A stretch of 64,000 nucleotides of DNA, from assembly GCA_963666345.1 (NCBI GenBank), contig OY762721.1:448001-512000 (forward strand), given 5' to 3'. Position 1 is the first letter of the stretch, and each line of letters opens with the position of its first letter. Position numbers: made by a program. Source of the stretch: Desulfatiglandales bacterium (GTDB lineage: Bacteria; Desulfobacterota; DSM-4660; Desulfatiglandales; Desulfatiglandaceae). Of this stretch, positions 33,001 to 36,000 are shown in pieces.

Positions 33001-36000
33001 GATCTTTATTTGTCTCATCAGTTCACGGCGCCTGCTTATTCTCAATGGGTAAGCAGGCGTCCGTGTCTTTGCAGGTGTCATCACCTAATTGGGTCATAAT
33101 CAACCATGACTGAAGATTTCGGCCCAGCCTTGGGCACCCCCGCAAGACTTTGGAATCAAGGCGCCGACAACCTACGGCTTAGGCGTATGACTAATGGGCC
33201 CGCGCATTACCTCTTGACGGTGGATCAGAATCTTTAATTGGCGCTTGTCTGAAATTGCGGTTTATGCTAAGTAATCCAGGATAGATTCTTATTGTCAGGC
33301 CTTTTCTTTATATCTCCAAAACCTTATAAAAGACGCATCAAGGGGGGCCTCATGGATGACAAAGAAAAAGGTATGGTTCTTGCCTCATTTGCCGGAGATT
33401 CTCTTTCCCTTGCTGCTCACTGGGTCTATGACACAAATACGATCAAAAGGAATTTCGGCAGAATAGAATCCTTTTTTAAACCCGCATCAAACTCCTTTCA
33501 CCCCACCAAAGAGGATGGTGAATTCACCCATTACGGTGACCAAACCCTCGTGCTTCTTGAATCCCTTGCTGAAAAGAGAGGATTCGAACTCAAGGACTTC
33601 GCTCAAAAATGGAGGTCGTTCTTTGAAAACTACCGGGGGTATTTCGATCAGGCGACCAAGGTAACCCTCAGCCGTTTTTCATCGGACATGCCTCCTGAAG
33701 AATCAGGTTCCCCCTCGGACGACCTTGGCGGAGTGTCTCGAATCGCTCCTCTTGTGTACGCATACAGGGATGATCTGAAAGGTCTTATGAATGCCTCCAA
33801 GGCTCAAACAGCAATGACGCACAGGGACCCTATCGTCTTGAAAAGTGCCGTTTTTTTCTCACGCCTTACCTGGCAGATTCTTAAAGGCGACACACCTACC
33901 CATGCGATCGACAAGATAGCAAGAGAGCACTTTGAGCAATCCCCGATATACAACTGGGTGCAGATAGGGCTCGCCTCAAAGGATATGGACACTGTTTCCG
34001 TCATATCCAATTTCGGCCAGAGCTGTCATACAAGAGAGGCCCTTCCCGGAGTCATACATATCATTGCCAGACATGAAAAAGACCTAAAAGAGGCCCTGAT
34101 TCAGTGCGTGATGTCGGGTGGCGACAGTGCGGCAAGGGCGATGATCGTCGGCATGGTCCTGGGGGCCCATCTGGGCTGTGGACCGATACCTGCAGATTGG
34201 ACCACAGGGCTAAAGGCGAGAGAAAAAATATTGGACCTGTTGGAAAGGATTTGAAAACCAGGCATGCATATCTTTTGACAATCCCCCCTGTTCCTTTTCA
34301 TTGACAAAAAAGGCCATCCCCTGCAAGAATAATTGTCCATAAGAAATCAAAGGCCCCTGGATTCCGCCTCTAAGTCGGAAATCTGCGTTTGGCTGAAAGA
34401 CCGCTATTGTTACTGAAATTTGCTATATTTTGAGCCTCCCGCTCAGCAATGTCATGGAGAAAAGCCTATGGAACTTGAATTCATCAAGGCGCGCGACCTG
34501 CCGGACGCATGGTTTCAATGCGTATACAGGCTGCTGGAACAAGGAAGAGAATATATAATAGACAGGGGAAGTTACGAAGGACAGAAAAGGCTCGAATTCG
34601 ACTATCTTACCGTCCATATCCGGTACCCCGGCGTAAGGCCTCTGCTGCCGGATATCCCGCCTGCGCTTGGCATCCCCAACCCGGTTGCGGAAGGCTATCT
34701 GGAAGATTACCTTCCCTACCTGATGACTTCCTTAAAGCAACCCGGTGAGGACTACACATACGGGTCCTATCTGGAGACTCAGATAGGTGAAGTCATTCGT
34801 ATGTACAAAAAGGATGGATACGGCACGAATCAGGCATACATGACCGTAGGCGAACCGAAGACCATCTATCTCAAAGACCCTCCCTGTCTTAGAGGCATCG
34901 ACACGAGGGTTACCAACGGCAAGCTCCACTTTTTCGTCTACTTCAGATCATGGGATCTCTGGAACGGCTTTCCGGCCAATCTCGGTGCCATCCAGCTCTT
35001 GAAGGAATACATGGCCGCAGAGATAGGTATCGAGGATGGAGAGATAGTGGCGGCAAGCAAAGGGCTTCACCTCTATGACTATGTATGGGAACTTGCGGAA
35101 CTCAGGACTATGTGCTCAAAGAAACAGGCCATTAAGCTGAAGGCTGACGGCTGAACGCTCCATCCGGAAATCTTCGGTTTATGGATGGCATCGACTTAAT
35201 CCGGGCATTAAGGCGAAATCATCTTTTTAAGGCCTGAGTCAGGTAAACAGGTTCTGGATTACGAAACTACGACCTTTTCTGAAATCTTGCTCACTCTGAT
35301 TTTTGAATGATAATGGAAAATTTCAATAAGATTAAATTAAAAGGGCTGAACGAGGCGGAAACCGAAGCCTGGGTCCTGGACCAGGGGATGGATTCCTACA
35401 GGTCCCGCCAGGTAAGGCACTGGCTCTTTAAAAAGTTTGTCAAGTCCTTTGATGAAATGACCAATATCTCGGCATCCTGTCGTGCCCTGTTCGATGAAAG
35501 GGCAGACATTTGCCCCCTGGAGCAGGTCGACAAACTTGAGTCAACAGATACCACGGCCAAATACCTTTTCAAATGCCATGACGGCAATCTGGTAGAATCC
35601 GTTCTGATTCCTGAAAGAGACCACCTCACCCTCTGCATATCTTCGCAGGCAGGTTGTTCAATGGGTTGCCGTTTTTGCCTCACTGCCAGGCAGGGTCTCA
35701 CAAGGAATCTTACTCCCGATGAAATCATAGAGCAGGTAATACTGGTAAAACGGTCAATCAGCACCCCGGACCGAATTACCAACATAGTCCTTATGGGCAT
35801 GGGAGAGCCGCTTGCCAATTATGACTCGGTAATCAAGGCGATTAAAAATATGATTTCCGAAGAGGCAATGAACTTTTCTCACCGGAAGATTACCCTTTCA
35901 ACCTGCGGGCTTGTTCCCCAGATACGCCGGCTGGGAAAAGACATACCGGTAAACCTGGCCATATCCCTCAATGCCCCTGATGACGGGAAACGTGATTATC

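Follow-up and report, generated by a model that had tools for sequence, protein, structure and literature searches.

The synthesis of dTMP is usually taught as a problem with two solutions, ThyA working together with FolA, or ThyX. The locus described here raises the question of how dTMP is made by cells whose thymidylate synthase belongs to a clade that fits neither. It lies in a window of 64,000 nucleotides (the whole stretch of DNA that was analysed, positions 448,001 to 512,000 of contig OY762721.1) from a Desulfatiglandales bacterium, and all coordinates below count from the first letter of this window. On the plus strand, at 34468..35154, a short gene encodes a protein of 228 amino acids that was recognized from its translation, from a family search and from an AlphaFold model (pLDDT 96) as possessing the thymidylate synthase fold. 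We refer to this protein and its close homologues as the short family.

The only thymidylate synthase gene of the genome

The host genome (G000) is represented by a single contig of 4.16 Mb, with 96.7% completeness and 3.4% contamination. A search of the whole genome with PF00303 returned one match, the 228-residue protein, in agreement with the preliminary description, which had claimed it as the sole thymidylate synthase. That description had also stated that ThyX, FolA and thymidine kinase are missing, and this was confirmed: genome searches found neither ThyX (PF02511) nor FolA (PF00186), and no thymidine kinase exceeded the cut-off, the one weak match (E 0.066) falling on a frame of 360 residues. 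Deoxynucleoside kinase (PF01712) and DfrB/R67 were likewise not found in this genome. Those close relatives that have names carry the labels Desulfatiglans, Desulfobacteraceae or Deltaproteobacteria.

Inspection of the surroundings of the gene, and of 143 loci of the short family, did not reveal a dedicated partner. Downstream on the same strand lies rlmN (35307..36377), which is present at 50 of the 143 loci and appears to be a lineage-level neighbour; there is no sign of a functional link to the short gene. The upstream gene, also on the plus strand (33352..34254), resembles ADP-ribosylglycohydrolase and is not a conserved neighbour, occurring at 2 of the 143 loci. A plus-strand match to a sigma-70-like consensus (10 of 12 positions, 34301..34330) precedes the short gene, and such matches are not above chance in the region, where 5 were found and 2.7 ± 1.5 were expected. 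Genes of nucleotide metabolism are occasionally found near the short gene, with dut at 5, tmk at 2 and dCMP deaminase at 1 of the 143 loci, and these rare associations support a role in dTMP formation.

The short gene in the place of thyX

The distribution of the family was determined in an even sample of 181 Desulfobacterota genomes, each at least 93% complete, against all of which each query was searched; a carrier was defined by a match to the 228-residue protein with E below 1e-40. Most of these genomes are metagenome-assembled, so that a single absence means "not found" and nothing more. By this definition 51 of the 181 genomes carry the short family. ThyX was matched in 115 genomes, comprising 7 of the 51 carriers (one of these matches being weak) and 108 of the 130 non-carriers. 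The other 44 carriers lack it. The switch between ThyX and the short family is seen repeatedly among members of the same family and even between congeneric genomes, and these counts include related genomes that are not independent of one another. In 9 of the 181 genomes none of the synthase types searched for was found. It had been proposed that other carriers lack both ThyX and FolA. For FolA this is correct, since no carrier possesses a full-length copy and one (G159) has a partial match, but for ThyX it is contradicted by the 7 carriers with a match. A true thymidine kinase was found in 1 of the 40 carriers tested, the remaining matches being weak and located on frames of about 360 to 435 residues. 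(Four genomes, G036, G043, G070 and G137, hold another synthase type and were left out of the carrier counts for thymidine kinase and FolP.)

Two closed, congeneric genomes provide the most direct comparison. In G023, which has ThyX, there is a run of genes in the order gatB-mtnA-rex-dut-thyX (dut and thyX were matched, and the other names were assigned by reading the sequences). G088, with a genome of 1.63 Mb, possesses the same gatB-mtnA-rex-dut run without thyX, and its short gene lies at another site, flanked by an efflux gene and a PilZ-like gene and without a neighbouring reductase. The absence of thyX from the very slot at which the sister genome has it, together with the presence of the short gene alone, makes it very probable that the short enzyme is the de novo dTMP-forming enzyme of the cell. 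This conclusion is supported by the complementary distribution of ThyX and by the near absence of thymidine kinase among carriers. It is supported as well by G093, in which ThyX is accompanied by a broken copy of the short gene, by a relative (P0237) in which the fold is fused to thymidine kinase, and by the inteins found in many relatives. The short family thus resembles ThyX (PF02511) in its niche and in its independence of FolA, and we propose below that it may share the net reaction; the two are related neither in sequence nor in fold.

A separate clade among the archaeal-type enzymes

The protein exceeds the PF00303 cut-off (36.9 bits against 24.3) and possesses the features that define this superfamily, namely the fold (Z 19 to 24), the catalytic cysteine, and the RS-x-D and H-x-Y motifs; the residues concerned are nearly invariant. 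It had been assigned to TIGR03283 and described as a methanogen-type ThyA. TIGR03283 is indeed its best NCBIfam match, but its score of 78 bits falls below the cut-off of 174.55, so that it is not a member, nor is the G088 orthologue (78.6 bits), while the control proteins P0272, P0279 and PhiF1 pass at 187 to 234 bits. The classical family TIGR03284 was matched at 34.1 bits, below its cut-off of 108.35. In a tree of 56 rows, built from one search with a midpoint root and containing long branches, the 29 rows of the short family form a single clade (support 100/99) and the 8 methanogen-type rows another (95/85), so that the label "methanogen type" is too close. These two groups fall together (99/94) with a second type of 293 residues and with a long fused type, and this superclade stands opposite the classical ThyA proteins and the phage hydroxymethylases.

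The short family and the methanogen-type enzymes (TIGR03283, including ORF59 of Methanobacterium virus PhiF1) have much in common besides their superclade. Both are about 210 to 230 residues long, with an N-terminal strand, a YTYG motif and no C-terminal lid, and both have an acid residue three positions before the catalytic cysteine (Cys-3) and retain the equivalents of Asp169 and Asn177. In contrast, the short family has TNQ in place of an Arg-Arg pair as well as invariant CLR and RSWDLW motifs, and its hosts, unlike methanogens, make folate and lack DmrX (in the five carriers tested). At 50% identity there are 1,346 clusters with E up to 1e-10, a number that includes other archaeal-type enzymes, and 297 with E up to 1e-30; 37 viral loci encode the short family. 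Passages in two papers describe the biochemistry of archaeal-type thymidylate synthases as scarcely known (PMC9931769, PMC9012536). A search of the open full-text literature found no account of this bacterial clade or of a hydroxymethylase-type site in an archaeal-type ThyA; this search did not extend to the older, subscription-only literature on the enzyme of methanogens. The short family is a real variant within a known superfamily, and apparently an undescribed one.

Active site and predicted structure

The catalytic PPC, RSWD and N motifs claimed for the protein are present, as D137-P-P-C140 (34876..34887, plus strand, as are all the motifs given here) and R160-S-W-D163 followed by N171 (34945..34980), and alignments add the deoxyribose-binding motif H201-L-Y203 (35068..35076). 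Cys140 is the catalytic cysteine. We take R160 and S161 to be phosphate ligands, D163 to be the equivalent of Asp169 in E. coli ThyA, and N171 to be that of Asn177, which selects dUMP, roles that are based in part on PMC13326640 and PMC6400193. In 108 aligned members Cys140, Arg160, Ser161, Asp163, Asn171, His201, Tyr203 and Tyr98 are nearly invariant, with D163 in 102 and N171 in 106 rows. Since this set includes Asn171, dUMP is the likely substrate. The short family therefore shares with classical E. coli ThyA the fold (Z about 19) and counterparts of Cys146, Arg166, Ser167, Asp169, Asn177, His207, Tyr209 and Tyr94.

In other respects the site departs from the classical one. T120-N-Q122 (34825..34833) occupies the position of the Arg-Arg phosphate pair of other members, which we take to be R126/R127 in E. 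coli numbering. Compared with E. coli ThyA the chain lacks about 40 residues at its C-terminus, and with them the lid. The Trp80/Trp83 segment and an invariant Glu58 are lacking as well, a correspondence that depends on the alignment of a poorly conserved stretch. (A control alignment led us to abandon the view that RB69 gp48, too, is without Glu58.) Finally, D137 lies at the position of E. coli Leu143 and of Asp145 in T4 gp42. Aspartate is found at Cys-3 in 83 of the 108 rows; in the other 25 there is histidine (9), asparagine (5), serine (4), or other residues or gaps. Among phage and bacterial proteins selected by hand as controls, this residue was leucine in six of six classical ThyA proteins and aspartate or glutamate in T4 gp42, Pseudomonas phage M6 gp58 and RB69 gp48. 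Methanogen-type and second-type proteins have Asp, Glu or His.

This residue is of interest because of what has been reported for T4 dCMP hydroxymethylase, in which the aspartate at Cys-3 activates water and the substitution D145N abolishes activity, while thymidylate synthases have leucine (PMC6400193). The same source gives this aspartate and the missing C-terminal tail as marks of hydroxymethylases, whose product is tetrahydrofolate and not the dihydrofolate released by ThyA, and the same position serves as a signature in PMC13326640. The short family displays both marks, sharing the acid residue with T4 gp42, M6 gp58 and MilA and the absent tail with T4 gp42, and it keeps the N-terminal "E" of the T4 KTIEI region as Glu or Gln43. 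It differs from the hydroxymethylases in lacking an invariant Glu60 and in being encoded by a chromosomal, single-copy gene that replaces thyX. It differs also at the position of T4 Ser94, where hydroxymethylases are expected to have Ser or Thr and 106 of the 108 rows have Tyr96, within Tyr96-Thr97-Tyr98. M6 gp58 also lacks Ser94, and the serine rule is therefore not universal among hydroxymethylases.

The AlphaFold model was compared with solved structures. By Z-score the closest is the flavin-dependent dCMP hydroxylase AfhB of phage HY126 (PDB 9iqu/9iqc; Z 24.0 with rmsd 2.2 over 203 aligned residues, and Z 23.4), followed by the hydroxymethylase MilA (Z 21.1, rmsd 1.9, 200 residues) and by ThyA structures at 19.6 or less, although the higher value for AfhB could simply reflect the shortness of both proteins. 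AfhB also has the best Foldseek TM-score (0.76). The order by Foldseek E-value places two classical thymidylate synthases first, in near ties with AfhB. RB69 gp48, an AfhB homologue, is reported to co-purify with FMN, and the fold of this group to bind FMN or FAD (PMC13326640); a ThyA-type fold can therefore hold a flavin. In these flavin hydroxylases Asn stands in place of Asp169 (PMC13326640), and together with Asp177 it marks a group that acts on dCMP with O2. The short family shares their acid residue at Cys-3 but differs from them in having 18% identity, in retaining Asp163 and Asn171 at these two positions, and in belonging to anaerobes. With aspartate at position 169, flavin binding by the short enzyme is a hypothesis. 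Taken together, the predicted hydroxymethylase-type site and the match of the model to a flavin-binding enzyme give real grounds for suspecting a chemistry other than that of ThyA.

The missing pterin reductase

The preliminary description had posed a dilemma, in which these cells need either a step that recycles dihydrofolate or a different ThyA chemistry. The dilemma stands, but the absence of FolA does not point to this enzyme. FolA was matched in 13 of the 181 genomes, strongly in 10, and among the 115 ThyX genomes in 8, of which 1 match was weak. Its absence is a trait of the phylum, common to ThyX carriers, and by itself does not single out the short enzyme; any argument from absence alone is weakened accordingly. 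At the same time folate synthesis is intact. FolE2, a PTPS-like protein, FolK, FolP, FolC, FolD, Fhs, GlyA and Fmt are all present in G000 and G088, and FolP was found in 38 of 40 carriers; in a set of 80 genomes, most of them with ThyX, 79 had it. It follows that a pterin reductase outside the known families is present in the phylum, whatever the synthase, and it could recycle dihydrofolate. This gap has already been noted in print for ThyX organisms (PMC1971073).

None of the known pterin reductases (FolA, FolM/PTR1, DfrB, DmrX/DmrB or a FolP fusion) was found in the host above its family cut-off. The preliminary description had left room for a FolM-like short-chain dehydrogenase (SDR), and this escape is now largely closed. 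The TGxxxRxG motif, taken from E. coli FolM, is absent from all 7 classical SDR matches in G000, and the single FolM-like SDR of G088 is a bona fide FabG. Pteridine reductase NF006598 exceeded its cut-off in 0 of 80 genomes, with sub-threshold matches in 13 and no more than 29 candidates scored for any one genome; in the larger genomes a divergent SDR could still serve. Methanogens possess the FMN reductase DmrX (PMC6193120), but in five carriers searched for DmrX/DmrB no protein exceeded the cut-off and only ferredoxin-domain matches were seen. The PF02441 matches in G000 proved to be UbiX and CoaBC. A reductase fused to FolP was not found in G000 or G088, nor was a stand-alone copy of the FolP N-terminal extension, for which the profile consisted of 3 rows, one of them spurious.

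RibD_C occurs in G000 only as true RibD, and in G088 there are a single nitroreductase, RibD, and a stand-alone RibD reductase, the last of which is also present in its ThyX sister. UPF0280 was found in 134 of the 181 genomes and is missing from 7 of the 10 with a strong FolA match and from 40 of the remaining 171. The gap that it leaves is not filled by long FolP frames (23 of 46 against 11 of 33, frame length being a crude measure), and UPF0280 is a weak lead as the missing reductase. Subtraction of G023 from the genes shared by G000 and G088 left 315 candidates, judged by eye to be mostly housekeeping genes; the comparison covered 1.16 of the 1.83 Mb of G023, and synteny was poor.

A possible folate-sparing chemistry

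We lean, tentatively, toward the view that the short enzyme forms its dTMP without oxidizing folate and obtains the hydride from outside, perhaps from a flavin. By homology, Cys140 would add to C6 of dUMP, and methylene-tetrahydrofolate would supply the one-carbon unit to give an exocyclic methylene intermediate. The uncertain step follows. With aspartate at the Leu143 site, and with neither lid nor conserved tryptophan to hold the pterin, tetrahydrofolate may leave unoxidized, as it does in the hydroxymethylases. Two electrons would then be needed. A reduced flavin might enter the same pocket, so that a ThyA fold would carry out the net chemistry of ThyX, a route that taken singly we consider rather unlikely; less likely still, 5-hydroxymethyl-dUMP might be released and reduced by a second enzyme. 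By either route no dihydrofolate would be formed and FolA would not be needed. It is conceivable, and we offer this with slightly more reserve, that the clade represents a third class of dTMP synthase, with a ThyA fold, tetrahydrofolate spared, and the hydride donated either by reduced flavin or by a distinct reductase.

Sparing of folate is supported by the uncoupling of the short family from folA. In the three sample genomes with a classical ThyA, two of them from one family, folA lies directly beside thyA in two and the third has a partial FolA match, while full-length FolA occurs in 0 of the 51 carriers. Several observations argue against it. The hydroxymethylase signature is incomplete, with Tyr at Ser94 and no Asp in 25 of 108 rows, and the retention of Asp169 speaks against a flavin. 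The methanogen-type relatives share the acid residue, yet extracts of Methanosarcina made dTMP from methylene-pterin, in a passage that names neither the enzyme nor the source of the hydride (PMC9931769). No partner gene was seen at the 143 loci. In addition, most ThyX genomes lack FolA too, and FolP is widespread in carriers, so that dihydrofolate may be recycled in any case.

These last points lead to the most serious alternative, which follows closely in plausibility: ordinary ThyA chemistry yields dTMP and dihydrofolate, and the latter is recycled by the reductase that FolA-less Desulfobacterota need anyway for folate synthesis. The folate genes that G000 and G088 possess although they have no recognized reductase, the 35 of 38 carrier FolP proteins without a long N-terminal extension (3 have a long frame), and the published missing-DHFR problem (PMC1971073) speak for this explanation, as does the retention of the catalytic Cys, Arg, Ser, Asp169, Asn177, His and Tyr. 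Slow anaerobes would, moreover, need little flux. That the gene moved into G088 by itself is what one would expect of a host in which folate is recycled already; it fits a flavin route better than a two-enzyme route, and ordinary chemistry equally well. Against ordinary chemistry stand the replacement of Leu143 by Asp, the absence of a conserved Trp80/Trp83 region, of an invariant Glu58 and of the lid, and the arrival of classical ThyA in the same phylum with folA. Candidate reductases common to G000 and G088 are the RibD reductase domain, nitroreductase, MetF-type flavoproteins and a UPF0280/ApbE-like protein, but none shows a clean pattern, UPF0280 being present in 47 of the 51 carriers and missing from 40 FolA-less genomes.

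Two further explanations are improbable. No reduction would be required if the carbon arrived at the methyl level, for example from a methyl-corrinoid protein supplied by the Wood-Ljungdahl pathway. Support for this idea comes from the long type, which occurs in ThyX-less genomes and in which the fold is fused to a DUF4346 pterin-binding domain and, at the N-terminus, to a domain judged by eye to be MtrA-like. PF04208, however, was unmatched at the locus of the long protein itself, a single-sequence model of this type reached a pLDDT of 37, neither MtrA nor a DUF4346 domain turned up in G000, and three other carriers yielded no MtrA. Acetyl-CoA synthase is present in 48 of the 51 carriers but also in 117 of the 181 genomes overall, and a specific link of the short family to the Wood-Ljungdahl pathway was rejected for this reason. 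It is slightly more improbable that the enzyme is a plain dUMP hydroxymethylase, in a cell whose chromosome contains hydroxymethyluracil for thymine or whose dTMP comes from an unrecognized synthase or from salvage. The combination of Asp at Cys-3 with Asn177 is that of the phage M6 dUMP hydroxymethylase, the viral loci and the nine genomes without a recognized synthase would be accommodated, but the gene-for-gene replacement of ThyX (G088 against G023, and G093) and the placement of the family with archaeal-type enzymes instead of phage hydroxymethylases both argue otherwise. Cultured relatives and methanogens are not known to depart from ordinary thymine in their DNA, which also counts against this explanation.

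If the favoured folate-sparing reading is correct, a third route to dTMP would operate in over a quarter of the sampled Desulfobacterota and in their viruses. By extension it would operate in the archaeal-type lineage, including the methanogens, and would explain why this lineage was never coupled to FolA. Since the hosts of the short family use ordinary folate, the chemistry of archaeal-type thymidylate synthases can be addressed in E. coli without methanopterin. Either outcome would be useful: a textbook fold would prove to harbour a new mechanism, or these bacteria would prove to possess a dihydrofolate reductase of high capacity from an unrecognized family, and for such a reductase the 1.63 Mb genome of G088 leaves a short list of candidates.

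Other thymidylate-synthase-fold types in the phylum

A 518-aa thymidylate-synthase-fold fusion is encoded in the Desulfobacterota genome G033, directly after a dCMP deaminase (locus L014, 583-2139), and long frames akin to it were found in G004, G067, G098, G105, G135 and G159. The C-terminus of the 518-aa protein is the pterin-binding domain DUF4346, and Asn occupies the position equivalent to Asp169 of E. coli ThyA. By eye, its N-terminal domain resembles the cobamide protein MtrA; PF04208 gave no match to this domain. ThyX is absent from the genomes with the long fusion. As read from sequence, the long fusion suggests that a corrinoid-dependent route to dTMP may operate in these genomes.

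Three queries detected no thymidylate synthase in 9 of the 181 genomes sampled (G021, G026, G041, G055, G058, G074, G140, G165 and G176), some of which belong to families bearing the long type, which may there have escaped the search. FolA is present in one of them, G026.

A second archaeal-like type, of ~293 aa, occurs in G043, G137, G036 and G101 (loci L325, 1459-2352, L326, L327 and L328), and FolA was not found in these genomes. This type has the motifs DDPPC and RSRD, retains the Arg-Arg pair and scores below the TIGR03283 cut-off.

Leads for the missing reductase

For the pterin or dihydrofolate reductase expected in hosts that lack FolA, a UPF0280/ApbE-like protein (4106768-4107517 on the contig of the window's genome; L245, 4311-5066) provides a weak lead. 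It is present in 134 of 181 genomes and absent from 7 of the 10 with FolA; among 14 controls, only the two methanogens possess it. In G007 and G077, thyX lies within ~2 kb of its gene. FolP carries an N-terminal extension of ~140 aa at L321 and L323 (G167 and G043), which may resemble the Helicobacter reductase domain; long FolP frames are common among ThyX genomes.

Neighbours and domain architecture of the short synthase

In 6 of the 143 loci (L028, 1313-2557, L030, L115, L116, L121 and L134), the next gene downstream of the short synthase encodes a TIGR00275 (HI0933-type) flavoprotein. The low-specificity threonine aldolase 2 kb upstream in the window (31268-32308, minus strand) is a possible source of glycine; no conserved link between aldolase and synthase was found in the short-family loci compared. 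A dCMP deaminase, short synthase and tmk run together at L124 (5493-7278; 80% identity), which comes from a Patescibacteria-labelled record; a synthase-tmk pair is present at L148, labelled Nanoarchaeota. Both may reflect viral origin or misbinning.

Among related proteins, P0237 is a synthase fused to thymidine kinase, and P0186 has an N-terminal half that resembles a second, degenerate synthase domain. Inteins and homing endonucleases occupy several insertion sites (P0122, P0125, P0137, P0138, P0140, P0154 and P0209). In G088, a closed genome carrying the short gene, an L213-type kinase is encoded in a 392-aa frame (L173, 8512-9690), the C-terminal part of which is a thymidylate kinase; the N-terminal part has the appearance of a second P-loop kinase.
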